From a virus: 64,000 nt of DNA. The DNA is taken from positions 25,823-89,822 of the IMG/VR virus record IMGVR_UViG_3300037507_005588, one strand, 5' to 3'. The position numbers and the translations under genes are program-made. The notes under the pieces are model-generated. The model was not told the origin of the DNA. It ran no database searches and saw only the letters and a program-made list of their open reading frames with translations. The stretch's first letter is position 1, and each line of letters opens with the position of its first letter. Below, piece after piece: positions 10,645 to 58,325 of the stretch.

Positions 10645-11238
10645 TTAAAATTCTGTGTTAAAAAAGAATACTTGAAAAAGTCTCCCGTCTTCTTTTGTTT
10701 TTCCGAAGTAATCCAAAGATACGTGATACAAATCTGCTCTATATAAAATAAGACGATTGAATAAATTTCCAAATCTATCTACCATATCCCATTTAGTATA
10801 ATCTTTGGCATCCATATGTCCCGGTGATAATTCCTTGGGTTCACTTCCTCTGTAATCAAAACTCATTAGTCCAGTTTCTTTGTGTTTGAAAATACCTGTT
10901 CCAGCTGAAATAGGTGCATCAGGGGTTAAATACAAAACACCGGCCCAATCTGTATAGGAATCCGAATGAATCCATGACCTATCTTCAGCTGTTGTATATT
11001 GAAATGAACCCGTATAATCCCCACCCCAATTAACTATTTTACCAGCAAAAGGTTGAATATTGTATTGGATAATTTGTTTGATTTCTTCGTTCAAAAATGA
11101 TTGTGTTCTTCTTCCTGGATAATTACCAGAAACTGAAAATTCTTGACTCAATGCAAAGTCTCTAACCTCATGTGGGTTAGAATAAAAATCGTCAATAATC
11201 AAAGAAGAAACTCTCATTTTTGGTTTTTTAATAAACAT
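10645..11238 (-). CDS. DUF6445-like 2OG-Fe(II) oxygenase
   Basis: IIDDFY.NP, YPGRRT, WIHSD, AGVLYL, FNRLILY...H, RLFQVFF. Confidence 0.75.
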   Translation of the reverse strand: MFIKKPKMRVSSLIIDDFYSNPHEVRDFALSQEFSVSGNYPGRRTQSFLNEEIKQIIQYNIQPFAGKIVNWGGDYTGSFQYTTAEDRSWIHSDSYTDWAGVLYLTPDAPISAGTGIFKHKETGLMSFDYRGSEPKELSPGHMDAKDYTKWDMVDRFGNLFNRLILYRADLYHVSLDYFGKTKEDGRLFQVFFFNTEF

Positions 11239-25501: not shown

Positions 25502-25507
25502 CAACTT

Positions 25508-25605
25508 GGTGTAGTAGCTCAGGAGGAATGCCCATATGACATTCCCATGGTAGAGCAGAGTCCTGAAAAAACTTGTGCCACGTGGTTCGAACCCCGTCTA
25601 CACCA
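25508..25605 (+). ncRNA. Atypical tRNA-like RNA (Phe GAA-like) with extra hairpin in D-loop
   Basis: Perfect acceptor GGTGTAG/CTACACC, D-stem GCTC/GAGC, inserted GGAATG/CATTCC hairpin, bulged T-stem. Confidence 0.65.
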
Positions 25606-25753: not shown

Positions 25754-25903
25754 GGTTGGTAGTACAAAGCGTAGGTTGACAGACTGAGAGAGCAGTTCGC
25801 AAGGGTACACACTAAGAATTCTATTTCTCTCTAATGGTGTGTGAAGTTAGGCCATTCCGAGGTTGCTAAACGGGATTCCTGATAAAGTCAACTACTACCA
25901 ACC
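25754..25903 (+). ncRNA. Candidate multi-stem structured ncRNA of unknown family
   Basis: 11-bp closing stem GGTTGGTAGTA/TACTACCAACC, GTTGAC/GTCAAC, internal hairpins, trailing T run. Confidence 0.55.
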
Positions 25904-28088: not shown

Positions 28089-28667
28089 ATGAAAATCAGT
28101 AGAAAAGACCTTGAATGGTTCATCAAGAATATCCGAACTCACAGTGAGGGTAAAGAACTCACCGATGAACAATTGGTAGATGAACTTGCCACCTACATGG
28201 AGAGAAATCCAAGGTGTGTGGATATTCATGGTGTCAGTGACCCTGGTAGATTCTATTACTCGACTGTCGGATATGGAGTGTTCTCTTTGTTTGGTGAGAA
28301 ATACCGAATGGGAAGAATTGAAATCTTTGATAGTCAAGACGAGTCAGGTTACGCTGTTGATGAGGGTATCTACACGATGCCATTCGTAGCTGCGAATCAG
28401 TTCGAAGACTTCATTGACTCACTTGAGACCGATTTACCAATCCATATCTCAATTGGTTCTCATGAGTGGTGTGAAAAAGAGTGTGCCAAAGCTCTCGGAT
28501 TTGAAAATCCCGATGAGATGAGGGACCCTGAAAAAATCCAAGCATTTCAAAGAAAGAAAAATGATGATTATGCGGTAGAACGTGGATTCAAAGATTTTGA
28601 TGATTTGTGGACAAATAGTAAATTCGGTGGTAAAGCACCAAGTAACTTAAAAAACGAAGAAAAATGA
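28089..28667 (+). CDS. Hypothetical protein
   Basis: ORF with TATATTTG 28077-28084, 4 nt before ATG. Confidence 0.65.
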   Translation: MKISRKDLEWFIKNIRTHSEGKELTDEQLVDELATYMERNPRCVDIHGVSDPGRFYYSTVGYGVFSLFGEKYRMGRIEIFDSQDESGYAVDEGIYTMPFVAANQFEDFIDSLETDLPIHISIGSHEWCEKECAKALGFENPDEMRDPEKIQAFQRKKNDDYAVERGFKDFDDLWTNSKFGGKAPSNLKNEEK

Positions 28668-28760: not shown

Positions 28761-29045
28761 ATGAATACAATAGAAGATATTGAAAAAGTAGTTAGTGGAT
28801 TCTTGATGAAGAATCACAACGAACTTGGTTTGGGTGAATTTGATTTTGTCTACAACGAAGAAGTTATGGAACACGTTCACAGTATTTGTGTGAGCATTTT
28901 GTGTACCAAACATGGTATCGGTTACCCTGGCGGAGGGTTCGTTCAAGCAGTTGTCAACAACGACTTGATGGGAGCTTTCGGTCGGGCGGACAGTATCAAC
29001 AAAAAGTACATCGGTCTATACGTAAAACTTTTATACAATTATTAA
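28761..29045 (+). CDS. Hypothetical protein
   Basis: PGGGFVQAVVNNDLMGAFGRAD motif. Confidence 0.55.
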   Translation: MNTIEDIEKVVSGFLMKNHNELGLGEFDFVYNEEVMEHVHSICVSILCTKHGIGYPGGGFVQAVVNNDLMGAFGRADSINKKYIGLYVKLLYNY

Positions 29046-29272
29046 CAAAGTTCTGTCGCTCCACGGAGAGGAAACTCAGGACATCTCAGCTTAAGGTGGG
29101 AGATATAAGGATTACAACTTATAATGGTCAGTTATAAGTCCACATCATTATATCATAATTACCACCGAGGATGCAACCCAAAATAGTCCATGACGGTGAG
29201 CTGGTCGGACAAGGTGGGGGCCAAAAGATTAATGACAGATTAAATACAGAATCCTGGTTATACTTTGTTGAT
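29041..29272 (+). ncRNA. rnpB: RNase P RNA, miniaturised type-A-like
   Basis: GAGGAAACTCAGGAC / ACAGAATCCTGGTTA conserved regions forming P4 with bulged U; P1, P2, P5, P6, P7, P15-P17 all pair. Confidence 0.85.
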
Positions 29273-29277
29273 TAAAC

Positions 29278-29349
29278 GCCCCCTTAGGCTAATGGATAAA
29301 CCACTTCACTACGGATGAAGTTTTGGGAGTTCGAATCTCTCAGGGGGTA
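29278..29349 (+). tRNA. tRNA-Arg(ACG)
   Basis: CTTCA-CTACGGA-TGAAG. Confidence 0.92.
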
Positions 29350-29404
29350 CTGAAAAAAAGATTTGGATATTTATAAAATCTTTCTTATCTTTGTACTATC
29401 AAAT

Positions 29405-29558: not shown

Positions 29559-29618
29559 GTAGACCTTCAAAAGGGCCCTTCCGTCTCTGCGTGAGCGGCT
29601 TGCTGGGCCCGGGTCTAC
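29559..29618 (+). ncRNA. GC-rich rod-like hairpin RNA between tRNAs
   Basis: GTAGACC/GGTCTAC, GGGCCC/GGGCCC, CCG/CGG, CTC/GAG nested stems. Confidence 0.45.
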
Positions 29619-29706: not shown

Positions 29707-29780
29707 AGTTGAGTAGCTCAGTGGTAGAGCAATCCCATTTATGGGATGTGACGCGATAGGTTCGATTCCTGCCTCAACTA
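29707..29780 (+). ncRNA. tRNA-like RNA with collapsed anticodon loop
   Basis: AGTTGAG/CTCAACT acceptor, canonical D and T arms, anticodon arm ATCCCA-TTTA-TGGGAT. Confidence 0.7.
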
Positions 29781-29795
29781 CAAACCTATTTCATA

Positions 29796-35032: not shown

Positions 35033-35443
35033 TGGTGGAGGTGGCGGGAATCGAACCCGCGTCTTGCTCAGTCTACCCATAAAGGACTACATGCTTAGGT
35101 CAGGGTTTTTCACACCCTCCGAACTATTTGGTTTCTATTTTACCATCGTCACCAACAACTGTGGGGTGTTCACTCAAATCGGTAGAACACCAAACGTTAC
35201 CTCCATTCCTTTTTGGGTAGAAACCACACCGTAGGGACTTCTGTTTCCAGGTTATATGTCCATCGACCCATTGTCACTATAGCCTTAGGCTACAGTAACT
35301 TCCTCAGCTTGGATAAGACCCAAAGCCTCGAGAGTTGCGAAAGTTTCGCCGTTTGATTGTTGCATCCATAGATTAAGGTGATAGGAAACATCTCACCGCA
35401 TGCCCCGTATGACTAACTCTGCCAATCAATACCGGTCACCCCC
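35033..35443 (-). ncRNA. ssrA: tmRNA; tag GETFATLEALGLIQAEEVTVA* at 35285-35350
   Basis: GGGGGTG/CACCTCC-A-CCA with G3.U70; T-arm GCGGG-TTCGATT-CCCGC; tag ORF ending GCC TAA. Confidence 0.92.
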
Positions 35444-48680: not shown

Positions 48681-50450
48681 ATGGGTCTTTCCCGTGAACA
48701 ATTATTATTAGAATACACGAAGTGCATGCAGAATACTCCGTATGCGCTTCGAACTTATTTGCAGACATACGACAATACCCAATCGAGGTATGTTCCGTTA
48801 GAACTATTCCCTGACCAAGTTAGGTTAGTAGAAGATTACGATAGTTTTAATGAAAATATTGCCCTGAAATACCGACAAGCGGGTGTATCAACGGTTACCG
48901 CAGCATGGGCAAGTAAGAAACTTGTATTCGCTAGAAAAAACAAACCAGAAAAGGTTTTGATTATTGCCAATAAATTGGATACCTCTGTAGAATTTGCCAA
49001 CAAAATCAGGGAATTTACAGACCAATGGCCTTCGTGGGTTGGAGTGACTTTTTCCAACGACAAAAATGCTGCAAAACACTACAAACTCACAAACGGATGT
49101 GAGGTTAAGGCAGTTGCAACATCTAAAGACGCATTACGTGGATATACCCCCACGATTCTTATATTTGATGAAGCGGCGTTTATTGACGCGGACAGTGATT
49201 TCTGGGCGGCTTGTATGGCGTCACTATCCACAGGTGGTAAAGTGATTGTTATATCCACACCAAACGGATATGACCCCATCTATTACGAAATCTATGAACA
49301 GGCAAATCGTGGAATGAACGATTTTAAGATTACTGAGATGTATTGGTATCGAGACCCAAGATATACTAAAGATTTATACTTGGTAAAAACTGATGATATT
49401 GTTCATTATTTTCTAAACAGAGAGGAATATAAAAATGAAAAAATTTTAGATTACTCTGACGTAAACCCATTTGAAAGAAATTTTGCTGAGTTGGTAGATT
49501 TGTTCAAACAAGGTTGGAAACCATCCTCATCTTGGTTTGAGGCGATGGTGAAAAAACTCAAGTACGACAAAAGAAAAGTTGCTCAAGAATTGGAATGTAA
49601 TTTCCTCGGTTCAGGTGACAACGTTTTTGACTCAAATATGTTGAAGAGTATTACAGACAATATGGTTCAAGAACCCCCCACCAAAATGATGAGTGGTGGT
49701 TTGTGGATTTGGAAGGAACCAGAACTTGGTCACAAATATATTATGGGTGTTGACGTTTCTCGTGGAGATTCTGAGGACTTTTCCACATTTCAAATTTATG
49801 ATTTTGACGACAGGGAACAAGTTGCCGAATATCTAGGTAAAGTTCCACCTGATGTTTTAGCTGAAATTGCTTATAAATGGGGGAATATGTATAAAGCCTT
49901 TATTGTTGTGGATATCACTGGTGGGATGGGGGTATCGACTTCGAGGAAATTACAAGAACTTGGTTATAAAGATTTGTATGTCGATGGAGTAGAGTTTGGT
50001 AATAAATGGAAATATGACCCAAAAATGGATTTGAAGATTCCGGGTATTAACTTTAACTCAAAACGTGTTCAAATAATTGCATCTTTTGAAGAAGGGTTAA
50101 GACATGGATTAAAAATTAGGTCTTCACGATTATTGAACGAGATGAATACGTTTGTTTACATCAATGGTAGGCCAGACCACATGAAGGGGCAACATGATGA
50201 TTTGATTATGTCCTTGGCAATGGCTGTGTATGTTTCTGACTCATCGTTTTCCCAATTGACAAAGGTATCTGAGCAGGCTAAAACTATGTTGGAATCATGG
50301 ACGGTTCAATCATATGAAAAACCACAAGAAACGTACTTCAACCCATCTATTTCGAATAATAACTTCAAAAGGAATGTTGCATATCAAAATGAACCTAGCA
50401 AAAGCGATTATGAAAAGTATTTATGGTTATTCGGCGGTGGCAAGCGTTGA
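48681..50450 (+). CDS. terL: Terminase large subunit (T4 gp17-like)
   Basis: KYRQAGVST Walker A, IFDEAAF Walker B, STPNG, MGVDVSRG and HDDLIM nuclease motifs. Confidence 0.93.
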   Translation: MGLSREQLLLEYTKCMQNTPYALRTYLQTYDNTQSRYVPLELFPDQVRLVEDYDSFNENIALKYRQAGVSTVTAAWASKKLVFARKNKPEKVLIIANKLDTSVEFANKIREFTDQWPSWVGVTFSNDKNAAKHYKLTNGCEVKAVATSKDALRGYTPTILIFDEAAFIDADSDFWAACMASLSTGGKVIVISTPNGYDPIYYEIYEQANRGMNDFKITEMYWYRDPRYTKDLYLVKTDDIVHYFLNREEYKNEKILDYSDVNPFERNFAELVDLFKQGWKPSSSWFEAMVKKLKYDKRKVAQELECNFLGSGDNVFDSNMLKSITDNMVQEPPTKMMSGGLWIWKEPELGHKYIMGVDVSRGDSEDFSTFQIYDFDDREQVAEYLGKVPPDVLAEIAYKWGNMYKAFIVVDITGGMGVSTSRKLQELGYKDLYVDGVEFGNKWKYDPKMDLKIPGINFNSKRVQIIASFEEGLRHGLKIRSSRLLNEMNTFVYINGRPDHMKGQHDDLIMSLAMAVYVSDSSFSQLTKVSEQAKTMLESWTVQSYEKPQETYFNPSISNNNFKRNVAYQNEPSKSDYEKYLWLFGGGKR

Positions 50451-50478: not shown

Positions 50479-52287
50479 ATGATGGCAGAAAATGAAAAAA
50501 ATTTAACAGTTTGGCAGAGGTTATCCCAAACTTTCGGACCCAATTCTTTATTGGGTCAAGATATTCCTACGTATCAATACGACAAAAAAGTTTTATTGAG
50601 AACTACGGACAAAGACGAATACGAAAAACAAAAATTACAAGCTCGTCAAACTTACTATTTGTCTCAACAATGGGCAAAAATTGAGAATAATTTATACTCT
50701 CAAGCAATTTATTATGAACCAACAAGATTGGCTTCATATTACGACTACGAATCAATGGAATACACTCCCGAGATTTCTGCCGCTTTGGATACCTATGCTG
50801 AAGAATCTACCACAGTGGATGAGAATGGACACATGTTACAAATCTATTCTGACTCACCACGTATCAAATCTATTTTGGGTGATTTATTTAACAATGCTTT
50901 GGATATCAACACCAACCTTCCCATGTGGACAAGAAACACTTCGAAATATGGTGATAACTTTGTTTTCTTAAAATTAGACCCAGTCAAGGGTGTTGTTGGT
51001 TGTTTACAACTACCAAACATCGAAATTGAAAGAATTGAAGTAGGTATGAGAGGACGAGCAACTTCAGGGTTGGGTGGTGCTCCTACAACAACAGATGCTA
51101 GAAGTTTAACTTTTACGTGGAAAAACAAAAACTTAGAATTTAATAGTTGGGAGATTGCTCACTTTAGATTGTTGGGTGACGATAGAAAATTACCTTATGG
51201 TACTTCCATGTTGGAAAAAGCTAGAAGAATTTGGAAACAACTGGTTCTTTCGGAAGACGCTATGTTGGTTTATCGTGTATCGAGAGCACCCGAGAGAAGA
51301 GTTTTCAAAGTTTACGTGGGTAATATGGAAGACCAAGACGTTCAACCATACCTACAAAGGTTTGCACAACAATTCAAAAAAGACTCTGTCGTAGACCCTC
51401 AAACAGGAAACGTAGATATGAGATTCAACCAAATGGCGGTTGACCAAGATTTCTTTATTCCAGTTAGAGACCCAGCAGCTCCAAATCCGATTGAAACCTT
51501 GGATGGCGCGAAAAACTTATCAGAAATCGCCGACATTGAGTACATTCAAAAGAAATTATTGACAGCACTGAGGATTCCAAAGGCGTTTTTGGGATTTGAA
51601 GAAGTTGTGGGAGATGGTAGAAACTTATCTCTACAAGACATCCGTTTTGCCCGTACAATCAATAGGATTCAAAAATCTATGATTGCCGAGTTAAATAAGA
51701 TTGCAATTGTTCATTTGTTTTTATTGGGATTTGAAGACGAACTTGGTTCGTTCCAACTTAGTTTGACAAATCCATCGAAACAAGCTGATTTACTTACCAT
51801 AGATGTTTGGAAAGAAAAAATGTTATTGTATAAAGACGCCGTGACAGCGGTAGATGGTATTGCACCTGTTTCACAGACATGGGCTAAAAAACATATAATT
51901 GGTTTCTCAGATGAAGAAATCAAATTGGATTTACAACAACAAAGAATCGAAAAGGCGGTTGCAACTGAAATTCAAAATACTCCTAACGTGATTACCAAGA
52001 CTGGTTTATTTGATAATATTGATAAACTTTATGGAGGTTCTACAACCGGGGCAACGACGAGTAGTGATACGGGTATTGATGCTGGTTTGGGAGAATTACC
52101 CTCAGAAACTCCAATCGAGTCACCCACGGAAGGAGCTCCCGCAGAAATTACACCTGAATCTACAAATAAACAAGACAAGGTCATTTACGATTCAGAAAAC
52201 TTGGGGACAATTATGGAAATTGATTTGGATAAAGGAAGACGTTCTTTGGGTGAAATAGAAGAGCGTCTGTCTAAACTAATTAACTAA
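50479..52287 (+). CDS. Portal protein (T4 gp20-like)
   Basis: KYGDNF, EDAMLVYRVSRAPERRVF, DFFIP, DIEYIQKKLLTALRIP. Confidence 0.92.
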   Translation: MMAENEKNLTVWQRLSQTFGPNSLLGQDIPTYQYDKKVLLRTTDKDEYEKQKLQARQTYYLSQQWAKIENNLYSQAIYYEPTRLASYYDYESMEYTPEISAALDTYAEESTTVDENGHMLQIYSDSPRIKSILGDLFNNALDINTNLPMWTRNTSKYGDNFVFLKLDPVKGVVGCLQLPNIEIERIEVGMRGRATSGLGGAPTTTDARSLTFTWKNKNLEFNSWEIAHFRLLGDDRKLPYGTSMLEKARRIWKQLVLSEDAMLVYRVSRAPERRVFKVYVGNMEDQDVQPYLQRFAQQFKKDSVVDPQTGNVDMRFNQMAVDQDFFIPVRDPAAPNPIETLDGAKNLSEIADIEYIQKKLLTALRIPKAFLGFEEVVGDGRNLSLQDIRFARTINRIQKSMIAELNKIAIVHLFLLGFEDELGSFQLSLTNPSKQADLLTIDVWKEKMLLYKDAVTAVDGIAPVSQTWAKKHIIGFSDEEIKLDLQQQRIEKAVATEIQNTPNVITKTGLFDNIDKLYGGSTTGATTSSDTGIDAGLGELPSETPIESPTEGAPAEITPESTNKQDKVIYDSENLGTIMEIDLDKGRRSLGEIEERLSKLIN

Positions 52288-56480: not shown

Positions 56481-58325
56481 ATGGGCGCATTATTAGAAAG
56501 TGGTCTAGTTGGTAACATCGGTCTTAAGCACTTGAAAGTTATCAAAGAAGACACAGTAAATAAGTGGGACAAATTAGGATTCCTTGAGGGTCTAGGTGGT
56601 CACTTGAAAGAGAACGTAGCTCAGTTGTACGAAAACCAAGCTTCATATTTGATTAACGAAGCTTCTTCAACTTCTGACTCAGGTTCTTTCGAGACCGTAG
56701 TTTTCCCAATCGTAAGAAGAGTATTCTCTAAACTTCTTGCAAACGATATCGTATCTGTACAAGCAATGAACTTACCAATCGGTAAATTGTTCTACTTCGT
56801 ACCTAAAATCCAAGGTTACTCTGGTGGTACTACTCCTAACGACCTAGGTTACTTCGGTCAATCTGGTGACCACTACGCTCCTGTAGGTTCTCCAGGTAAC
56901 TACCCAGGTAATCCTGACGCTGGTTACACTAACGGTACAGGTTCTTACAATCCTACATACACAAAGGATTTGTATGACTTGTTCTACGAAGGTAACGAAG
57001 CTGGTTTGAATCCTCCAGGTTTGTTTGACTACTCTAAAGGTAAGTGGTCAGCTACTACAGCTGCTACTACAACTGTAGCTTGGAACAACAATGGTCTTAT
57101 GGTTCCTGCAGCATACGCTATAAACGATTACAGAAAGGTTATTATCGTATTGAGTGGTTTCTCTAACTCAGGTGCTGGTCAACTTATCGGACCTAATGGT
57201 AACACTATGGATACAGAAGAATTCCTTTCAGGATTGAACATCTTCGGTGTTCCTTCAAACGCGACTACTTCTGCTAACACCAGCAATCCTTACTTATTCA
57301 GAGTAGTAACTCAAAGATACGGTAAGGGTATCGTAGAATACGGTAACCAAGCTTCAACTACTTGGCCAACAACTGGTTCAGGTGGTCAGTACTACAACGT
57401 ATGTGACGCTAACGGTAGAATTTACTTGGAGGTAGACCTTCAGGTTCCTGTTTGTATTGAGTGTGGTCAAACAACTCCTGATGGTTACACAGGTTCAACA
57501 TTCGAATCTACACCAGCATTGAACCAAGCGTTCGTTGGTGTTTACAGAATCTACAAAGAACTTGAATTCGAAGACCAAATCGGTGAAGTTTCTTTCGACC
57601 TTGAGTCAGTAACTGTTTCTGTTACAGAAAGAAAACTTAGAGCACAATGGTCTCCTGAATTGGCACAAGACGTTGCGGCATTCCACAACATCGACGCTGA
57701 AGCTGAATTGACAGCTTTATTGTCTGAGCAAGTGGCTGCTGAAATCGATAGAGAAATCTTGAGAGACTTGAGAAAAGGTGCAGCTTGGAACCTAAGATGG
57801 GATTACAACGGATGGAAGAGACTTGCTTCTAGCGGTACAACTCCATACACTCAGAAAGACTGGAACCAAACTTTGATTACTGCAATCAACCAATTGTCAG
57901 CTCAAATCCACAAATCAACTTTGAGAGGTGGTGCTAACTGGATTGTTGTTTCTTCTGAAGTTTCAGCTATCTTTGACGACTTGGAGTACTTCCACGTTTC
58001 AAACGCGGCTCCTGAGCAGGACCAATACAACATGGGTATCGAAAGAATCGGTACTTTGTCAGGTAGATACCAAGTGTATCGTGACCCTTACTTCCCAGCT
58101 AACCAAGTGTTGATTGGACACAAAGGAACTAGCTTGTTGGATACAGGTTACATTTACGCTCCATACGTACCTCTACAATTGACTCCAACAATGTATAACC
58201 CATTCAACTTCACTCCTATCAAGGGTATCATGACTAGATACGCTAAGAAGATGGTTAACAACCGTTTCTATGGTAGAGTAACAGTTGACGGTGTTAGAAC
58301 ATTCGACTTGAGAGAATTGAGATAA
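56481..58325 (+). CDS. Major capsid protein (T4 gp23-like)
   Basis: FPIVRRVF, VSVQAM, RKLRAQWSPELAQD, EIDREIL, YAPYVPL, TRYAK. Confidence 0.95.
   Translation: MGALLESGLVGNIGLKHLKVIKEDTVNKWDKLGFLEGLGGHLKENVAQLYENQASYLINEASSTSDSGSFETVVFPIVRRVFSKLLANDIVSVQAMNLPIGKLFYFVPKIQGYSGGTTPNDLGYFGQSGDHYAPVGSPGNYPGNPDAGYTNGTGSYNPTYTKDLYDLFYEGNEAGLNPPGLFDYSKGKWSATTAATTTVAWNNNGLMVPAAYAINDYRKVIIVLSGFSNSGAGQLIGPNGNTMDTEEFLSGLNIFGVPSNATTSANTSNPYLFRVVTQRYGKGIVEYGNQASTTWPTTGSGGQYYNVCDANGRIYLEVDLQVPVCIECGQTTPDGYTGSTFESTPALNQAFVGVYRIYKELEFEDQIGEVSFDLESVTVSVTERKLRAQWSPELAQDVAAFHNIDAEAELTALLSEQVAAEIDREILRDLRKGAAWNLRWDYNGWKRLASSGTTPYTQKDWNQTLITAINQLSAQIHKSTLRGGANWIVVSSEVSAIFDDLEYFHVSNAAPEQDQYNMGIERIGTLSGRYQVYRDPYFPANQVLIGHKGTSLLDTGYIYAPYVPLQLTPTMYNPFNFTPIKGIMTRYAKKMVNNRFYGRVTVDGVRTFDLRELR

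Follow-up and report, generated by a model that had tools for sequence, protein, structure and literature searches.

The window examined in the present study is a 64,000-nucleotide (nt) stretch of DNA from a large, uncultured phage of lake water (IMGVR_UViG_3300037507_005588, record positions 25,823–89,822), and its subject is a gene for a miniature RNase P RNA at 29041..29277 on the plus strand, which lies in a same-strand array of tRNA genes. RNase P RNA is the ribozyme that removes the extra 5′ sequence from newly made tRNAs. Coordinates are positions in the window unless another contig is named; designations of the type L0xx or L1xx denote loci on other contigs. The extent of the gene was set by a match to RF00010, the Rfam model of bacterial class A RNase P RNA (29041–29276), by a match to R1, a covariance model built in the present study (29041–29272), and by the start of a tRNA-Arg(ACG) gene (29278..29350, plus strand). 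The folded core comprises 29041–29272 (232 nt) and is followed by a 5-nt tail that reaches the 5′ end of the tRNA. The tRNA-Arg gene, which has no encoded 3′ CCA, starts 5 nt after the ribozyme core and has the ribozyme as its 5′ leader. On the other side, an open reading frame (ORF) of 94 amino acids (aa) (28761..29045, plus strand) ends inside the first helix of the RNA, the 5′ strand of which overlaps the stop codon (29043–45). This ORF is acidic (isoelectric point [pI] 5.4) and belongs to no known family.

Identity and fold of the RNA

RF00010 covered 29041–29276 from end to end (model positions 1–367) with a score of 42 bits. The E-value was 8e-12 in a 501-base search (Rfam, E-value reporting) and 3.4e-13 over the whole 89.8-kb record, in which the gene is present as a single copy. 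When the families of the RNase P clan competed on the 501-base stretch, RF00010 was the best and was the one kept. In the alignment, conserved region I (CR-I), the GCAA of the joining region J5/15, AAAUAG, GGU, the GC after P15, CR-IV, and CR-V all matched the consensus. These results support the conclusion that 29041–29272 is homologous to the type A RNase P RNA of bacteria. We consider its identity as a phage-encoded RNase P RNA without the specificity domain to be very well supported and have hardly any doubt about it.

The curated gathering cut-off of RF00010 is 100 bits. The score of the phage RNA is below this value because the specificity domain and P18 are missing: 15 nt stand for 93 model positions of the specificity domain, 2 nt stand for 24 positions of P18, and P3 is a stub. 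At the curated thresholds of Rfam, only tRNAs and one transfer-messenger RNA (tmRNA) were reported in the window, and RNase P RNA was not. Since the RNA lacks two things that define type A, namely the specificity domain and a score at or above the curated cut-off, it is a reduced variant and not an ordinary member of RF00010. A blastn search of the RNA against 50,697 cultured and deposited phage records gave no match because the RNA sequence is too diverged for BLAST.

The pairings were verified by script on the window sequence. The RNA contains 58 nested pairs, of which G29109/A29147, located within the hairpin described below, is the single non-canonical one. The minimum-free-energy fold of the single sequence (z = -2.45) yields P1, P2, the long hairpin, P15, and P16/17. 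P1 (29041–29051/29262–29272) has 11 base pairs (bp), 10–11 of which covary among the relatives. It is followed by P2 (29052–29057/29234–29239), in which both sides change in all six pairs and the cells are 100% paired in the close clade, and by P3 (29059..29068), a 3-bp stem (29059–29061/29066–29068) with a CACG tetraloop that is replaced in relatives by UACG, GAAA, or UUAG loops or by longer compensated stems. J3/4 and the 5′ strand of P4, which form CR-I, occupy 29069..29081 and pair with 29252–29259. P4 itself consists of 29073–75 and 29077–81 with 29252–59; all eight pairs are formed and U29076 is bulged. Three letters of P4 differ from the RF00010 consensus, and each is compensated on the opposite strand.

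P5 (29082–29085/29170–29173) covaries in four of four pairs. The P6 pseudoknot joins 29087–29091 to the loop of P17 (29199–29203) by five of five pairs, and P7 (29095–29099/29162–29166) was found both by the script and by covariation. The GCAA of J5/15 (29173..29176) matches upper-case consensus positions and is almost invariant in the clade; its first letter, G29173, also closes P5. The P15-P16-P17 arm (29177..29219) is composed of P15 (29177–79/29217–19), P16 (29186–89/29207–10), and P17 (29192–94/29204–06), with GGU at 29213–15 in the internal loop L15; this GGU is kept in 12/12 close relatives. Directly after P15, the CR-IV (J18/2) motif AGAUUAAUG (29226..29234) aligns as AGAU.AAUG to upper-case RF00010 consensus and is kept in the clade. 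CR-V (29246..29260), which includes the 3′ strand of P4, also matches the consensus. The catalytic domain is thus complete (P1–P5, P7, P6, P15-P16-P17 with GGU, CR-I, CR-IV, CR-V, and the bulged U), and in all of these elements the RNA resembles bacterial type A RNA (rnpB/M1 RNA).

It differs from RF00010 in its size (232 nt versus a 367-position consensus), in having no P8–P14, no P18, and a P3 of only 3 bp, in the three swapped base pairs of P4, and in being encoded by a phage as a tRNA leader in a tRNA array. The specificity domain (P8–P14 with CR-II and CR-III) is missing, and an irregular AU-rich hairpin (29102..29154; stems of 11 bp and 8 bp separated by an internal loop, with a 7-nt loop) stands in its place. 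There is no P18, which is optional in some bacteria; only 6 nt (29220–29225) separate the 3′ strand of P15 from CR-IV. A hairpin is present at the P18 position in the more distant phage relatives L006, L011, L013, L017, and L018.

A preliminary description of this DNA had proposed a phage-encoded, miniaturized RNase P RNA with P2, P4, P5, P6, P7, P15 with its GGU, and P16, a bulged U in P4 with compensatory changes around it, no P18, and a single hairpin as the remainder of the specificity domain. The script found every one of these pairings where it had been placed, including the bulged U29076 and three compensated swaps, the RF00010 alignment agreed on P18 and the hairpin, and the full-length match bore out the assignment. 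P1 is also present, but is 11 bp long, not 10 bp as described.

Relatives and covariation

IMG/VR viral contigs were searched with a pattern of two P4-bearing motifs spaced 120–210 nt apart (25 specified bases). The pattern occurred at 60 places with 56 distinct cores, and we estimate that chance matches to 25 bases are not expected in a collection of this size. The covariance model R1 was built on the window RNA plus the three relatives nearest to it, with nested helices only, P4 and P6 being omitted, and recovered 44 of the 56 distinct viral loci at E ≤ 0.01. P4 and P6 were added to the R1 alignment as pseudoknots afterwards for pair scoring. Since the alignment was not fitted to these two helices, they are the cleanest tests of covariation.

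In the 44-locus alignment, 95.6% of the pair cells were paired versus 65.9% after shuffling (0/500 shuffles reached 95.6%), and sliding the partners by 1–3 columns lowered pairing to 34–43%. Changes on both sides were observed in 60 of the 71 pairs. P4 was 97.4% paired in this alignment and 99% paired in the 12 closest relatives, with three covarying positions; beside its bulged U, 22 sequences have a GC pair, 19 have CG, and 2 have UG. P6 shows swaps of CG/UA and of UA/AU/CG across these alignments. In the 12 closest relatives, P6 was paired in 100% of the cells, and overall 98.0% of the cells were paired, with double changes in 47/71 pairs. P15, P16, and P17 each covary, and P1 is found in almost every member with unrelated sequences. 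The hairpin at 29102–29154 also keeps its pairing in relatives, while its sequence is free and its length ranges from ~10 nt to >100 nt; therefore, it looks like a structural cap and not a recognition module. A covariance model from related phages had been suggested as a check in the preliminary description, and the covariation is strong both in the 44 relatives and in the 12 closest. We concluded that the fold is under purifying selection, with compensatory changes in every helix of the close clade.

These data bear on the possibility that the gene is a non-functional remnant, either a decaying rnpB captured from a host or host DNA misjoined to a phage contig. A score under the Rfam cut-off and the classification of the record as a provirus in IMG/VR are what such an origin might lead one to expect. 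However, compensatory changes throughout the close clade indicate purifying selection, the relatives show no random, non-compensated decay, and the closest viral loci (L014, L021, L052, and L024, all >240 bits) have the same gene in the same position, on contigs of related phages that come from other samples. Furthermore, the window contains phage structural genes, the ORFs scanned in the record's first 20 kb (10 of the 16 of at least 200 aa) include no host markers, and the stretch is represented in sequencing runs of 14 lake-water samples. We regard a remnant as very improbable.

Several relatives carry additions to the common fold. L052, the closest diverged relative (10863–11125), as well as L019, L050, L053, and L054 have an extra J2/4 hairpin between the 3′ strand of P2 and CR-V, which adds ~31 nt in L052. 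In L030 (IMGVR_UViG_3300033182_000991), an insertion of ~600 nt with an HNH-endonuclease-like ORF lies in the P3 loop, such that the 5′ strands of P1 and P2 are found ~650 nt upstream of CR-I. P3 has grown to a ~60-nt hairpin in L024 (2429–2708). Insertions appear to be tolerated in P3.

Miniature copies were also present in two huge-phage genomes, LR756508.1 (76011–76230, plus strand; L067) and LR756511.1 (224231–224445, minus strand; L066), both with E ~1e-13. The P4 strands of the LR756508.1 copy differ again in sequence, but are still complementary and keep the bulged U. With the covariance model, neither Flavobacterium phage immuto nor Microcystis phage Mel-JY01 yielded a copy. Full-size class A RNase P RNAs (332–375 nt; 139–288 bits, above the cut-off) were identified at 8 of the 10 viral loci tested: L125 (4835–5181), L138 (1111–1452), L150 (6074–6431), L147 (6764–7116), L117 (12670–13008), L165 (3911–4249), L128 (7064–7438), and L124 (3348–3679). 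They sit in dense tRNA arrays of viral contigs of 180–497 kb, and R1 does not reach them. Because full-size copies occur in viral contigs, phage RNase P RNAs span a continuum of sizes, and the miniature forms seem to have arisen by reduction within phages. Among the tRNA genes of one 190-kb viral contig, we also noted a c-di-GMP-I riboswitch aptamer (L143, 3262–3336, minus strand; 55.8 bits, above the cut-off).

The P4-anchored pattern for the miniature size also matched 49 contigs of metagenome-assembled genomes (L068–L116), many of them assigned to Elusimicrobia and to bacteria within the candidate phyla radiation (CPR; Shapirobacteria and Dojkabacteria) and a few labelled archaeal (L097, L101, and L112). 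Some of these are probably reduced RNase P RNAs of the cells themselves, and others may be mis-binned phage contigs. An attempt to identify the host through these cellular genomes was abandoned: none of the 49 matches is close, the best reaching 73.6 bits versus >240 bits for the closest viral loci.

Phage, host, and tRNA array

The gene lies in real phage DNA, as the preliminary description had assumed: genes for the large terminase subunit (48681–50447), the portal protein (50479–52284), and the major head protein (56481–58322) were recognized in the same window. The terminase has at most 31% identity to anything deposited; the best match is a 484-kb uncultured huge phage, followed by Flavobacterium phage immuto. 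IMG/VR classes the record as a provirus that is ~30% complete. We searched the first 20 kb of the record for host markers by a Pfam scan of 10 of the 16 ORFs of at least 200 aa and found none; besides ORFans, this region encodes a phosphoesterase and a lectin-domain protein and has an endolysin-like gene. No tRNAs occur in record positions 1–25822, which lie outside the window. The provirus label is probably wrong.

A Bacteroidota host, which was also part of the preliminary description, is plausible. The motif TAnnTTTG, which we take to be a Bacteroidota promoter motif, is enriched in the window (121 sites versus 82 ± 8.6 expected) and is found directly before the genes for tRNA-Glu, tRNA-Phe, tRNA-Leu, tRNA-Arg, tRNA-Thr, and tmRNA as well as before many ORFs, a placement that points to promoters of the host type. 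The nearest cultured relative of the terminase belongs to a Flavobacterium phage, which points in the same direction, but its identity is only 28%.

The window contains 25 tRNA genes and one tmRNA gene. Association with tRNA genes is a property of the whole family: at 51 of the 61 loci, a tRNA lies no more than 2.5 kb away, in nearly all cases on the same strand, and at 28 of the 61 a same-strand tRNA begins 12–25 nt after CR-V, directly after P1. At these 28 loci, the ribozyme constitutes the 5′ leader of a tRNA; therefore, RNase P cleavage would create the 3′ end of the ribozyme. Such tight fusion, of which the tRNA-Arg gene 5 nt after P1 is an example, could be taken to mean that the ribozyme processes only the tRNA that is joined to its 3′ end and has no general activity in trans. 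However, at 33 of the 61 loci, the 25 nt downstream contain no tRNA start, and at several of these there is no tRNA for kilobases. Moreover, judging from the known architecture, a 5-nt linker after P1 would seem too short for the tRNA to arrive at the active site, and the RNA retains the GGU loop and the complete face for substrate binding, as trans-acting enzymes do. Action in cis only is thus unlikely.

The expression sources were assembled contigs of metatranscriptome libraries from three studies, in which uncovered stretches carry no meaning. Contigs from two libraries lie on the gene (29045–29132 with 1 mismatch and 29075–29203 with 0 mismatches). Another contig joins the upstream ORF to the gene (28900–29074, 3 mismatches), and a further one spans the junction between the 3′ end of the gene and tRNA-Arg (29245–29357, 4 mismatches). 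These contigs give a weak hint of transcription of the ribozyme and of its co-transcription with its neighbors. Nothing convincing as a sigma-70-type promoter or a terminator was found at the ends of the gene. Downstream of tRNA-Arg, a promoter-like site of the Bacteroidota type (TTTG, 21 nt, TATCTTTG; 29361..29393, plus strand) precedes tRNA-Glu and may start the next transcription unit.

Other features of the array deserve mention. A GC-rich hairpin (29559–29618, plus strand; -30.4 kcal/mol, z = -2.8) followed by a U-run lies between tRNA-Met and tRNA-Gly and may be a terminator or a processing signal. A tRNA with the anticodon ATG ("His") was called at 29707–29781 (plus strand) with a low Rfam score (42.5 bits), and L014 and L015 carry the same call. 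The tmRNA gene (35033–35443, minus strand; RF00023, 83 bits) was not called by ARAGORN and has TAnnTTTG just upstream (35462–69). A tRNA-like gene between tRNA-Leu and tRNA-Tyr (25507–25605, plus strand; Rfam tRNA, 41.8 bits) was likewise not called by ARAGORN. Its acceptor and T arms are intact, with an insert of ~25 nt in the D-loop region, and an odd tRNA call in L052 (6985–7075) has a similar position in the array. The suggestion in the preliminary description that the ribozyme has a relaxed specificity suited to atypical tRNA-like RNAs nearby found no support: 25507–25605 is the one odd tRNA-like gene, and nothing ties it to the ribozyme.

Upstream of the 94-aa ORF lies an ORF of 192 aa (28089–28667, plus strand), which is also acidic (pI 4.7) and of no known family. 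It is found upstream of the RNase P RNA in L014, L052, L021, L024, and L030 as well, with 75–96% identity. Both ORFs were considered as candidates for a protein cofactor and were rejected; they are acidic and have no Pfam or PHROG match, and the synteny of the 192-aa ORF, being confined to closely related phages, carries little information.

Proposed function and significance

We propose that the RNA is a working RNase P RNA that consists of the catalytic domain only and matures the tRNAs of the phage, probably together with the RnpA protein of the host; we judge this explanation to be the probable one. The RNA would be co-transcribed with the tRNA-Arg located 5 nt downstream, possibly together with the upstream ORFs, and RNase P cleavage at the 5′ end of this tRNA would free the 3′ end of the ribozyme itself. 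The ribozyme may then act in trans on the 5′ leaders of at least 25 phage tRNA precursors and of the tmRNA precursor, the acceptor stem and 3′ end being recognized by the catalytic domain alone, most probably with host RnpA. During infection, the phage would thereby be able to process enough tRNA or would not depend on the enzyme of the host.

The choice of the protein partner follows from the Pfam searches. RnpA (PF00825) had no match in the 89.8-kb record (~30% complete) or in five genomes of phages that carry such RNAs (343–595 kb, one of them 98% complete). The use of host RnpA, as proposed in the preliminary description, is consistent with these searches and is most probable because no phage RnpA was found. 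The negative result with PF00825 leaves room for activity of the RNA alone or for an unrelated phage protein.

A catalytic role is made credible by laboratory work. According to the available text of a study on engineered RNAs (PMC5839562), the catalytic domain of the Escherichia coli RNA alone (Eco CP RPR) cleaves substrates with and without protein; once the specificity domain is gone, P18 contributes nothing, while pairing of the P6 type is important. The phage RNA keeps P6 and has no P18, which is the make-up of these constructs; therefore, catalysis by the natural RNA is credible. The two share a catalytic domain without a specificity domain. However, Eco CP RPR is a laboratory deletion, whereas the phage RNA comes from a natural gene that selection maintains in many phages, with a conserved hairpin as a cap where the specificity domain would be.

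Similar reductions have occurred in cells. Type T RNAs of the archaeal Thermoproteaceae (PMC3579882; RNaseP-T) are natural, ~200 nt in length, and have lost almost the whole specificity domain. In contrast to the phage RNA, they are products of cellular genes with an archaeal-type core and archaeal proteins; the core of the phage RNA is of bacterial type A, since RF00010 was kept in clan competition, and the phage has bacterial-type promoters and tRNAs. The RNAs of CPR bacteria and Mycoplasma fermentans (PMC8172020) are without P12, P13, P14, and P18 and are also under the Rfam thresholds. However, each is the sole essential copy of its cell, more of the specificity domain is kept, and many have no CCA-binding motif, whereas the phage RNA is an extra, virus-borne copy that retains GGU. 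The archaeal, CPR/Mycoplasma, and laboratory reductions are thus comparable, and none of them is virus-borne.

Among viral RNAs, theta (hepatitis delta virus-like) ribozymes are also encoded by phages and linked to phage tRNA genes and have been proposed to free tRNA maturation from host RNases (PMC10879173). They differ in being small, self-cleaving, and active in cis on tRNA 3′ trailers, and their fold and chemical context are unrelated to those of RNase P RNA. An RNA of camelpox virus and other orthopoxviruses has been proposed to resemble RNase P RNA (PMC3001073); it belongs to eukaryotic viruses, its resemblance is weak, and no cleavage of pre-tRNA was found, in contrast to the strong homology and covariation of the phage RNA.

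The poxvirus RNA, which is reportedly expressed but inactive (PMC3001073), nevertheless draws attention to the possibility that the phage RNA is a decoy or regulator, the RNase P shape of which sequesters host RnpA or pre-tRNAs and redirects or inhibits tRNA processing in the host. Any protein bound by the RNA would be that of the host, no RnpA having been found in the phage, and the available text of PMC5839562 indicates that engineered constructs become less efficient when the specificity domain is lost. On the other hand, a decoy has no need of the bulged U, J3/4, CR-IV and CR-V, P6, or GGU, all of which are conserved or covary in 44 diverged relatives, and a position as a tRNA leader in tRNA arrays suits a role in processing. 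We therefore regard a decoy as unlikely.

Some observations weigh against an active RNase P RNA that matures phage tRNAs. The bacterial specificity domain binds the T-loop/D-loop elbow of tRNA and raises affinity and accuracy, and this elbow-binding domain is absent from the phage RNA, the score of which (42 bits) does not reach the cut-off of RF00010. None of the phage tRNA genes encodes a 3′ CCA, the partner of the conserved GGU loop; therefore, CCA addition would be needed first. No promoter-like site, TAnnTTTG included, was found directly upstream of the gene. DNA carry-over in RNA libraries is possible, so the contigs described above are no proof of transcription, and as the record is only ~30% complete, a protein partner encoded by the phage could lie outside it. 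Catalytic-domain-only constructs are less efficient, as stated in the available text of PMC5839562. With these points taken into account, we still find it likely that the RNA is an active enzyme of tRNA 5′ maturation.

RNase P RNA, one of two universal ribozymes, serves as a textbook model for catalysis by RNA. A description of a phage-encoded RNase P RNA was not found in the full-text literature, a scope that leaves subscription-only papers aside. In the available text of the 2020 huge-phage paper that describes LR756508.1 and LR756511.1, RNase P is not mentioned, and the available portions of a 2021 overview of jumbo-phage genomics, a 2024 review on RNase P, and a 2026 jumbo-phage review contain no phage RNase P RNA. 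The genes fall into a blind spot of annotation: they are under the Rfam cut-off and are unannotated even in the published LR756508.1 and LR756511.1. We lean towards the view, with some reserve, that many large-phage lineages carry undescribed RNase P RNAs that were pared stepwise from full size to active forms of ~190–235 nt with the catalytic domain only.

If this is true, these would be the smallest natural RNase P RNAs of the bacterial type, active in vivo without a specificity domain. A natural, selected form of this kind would be an evolutionary experiment on the roles of the specificity domain and P18, and structural studies, as well as applications that use guide sequences or tRNA arrays, would gain a minimal scaffold from it. 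For the phages, it would mean autonomy in tRNA 5′ maturation: their translation toolkit, which includes tRNAs, tmRNA, synthetases, and 3′-processing theta ribozymes, would gain a 5′-processing enzyme.

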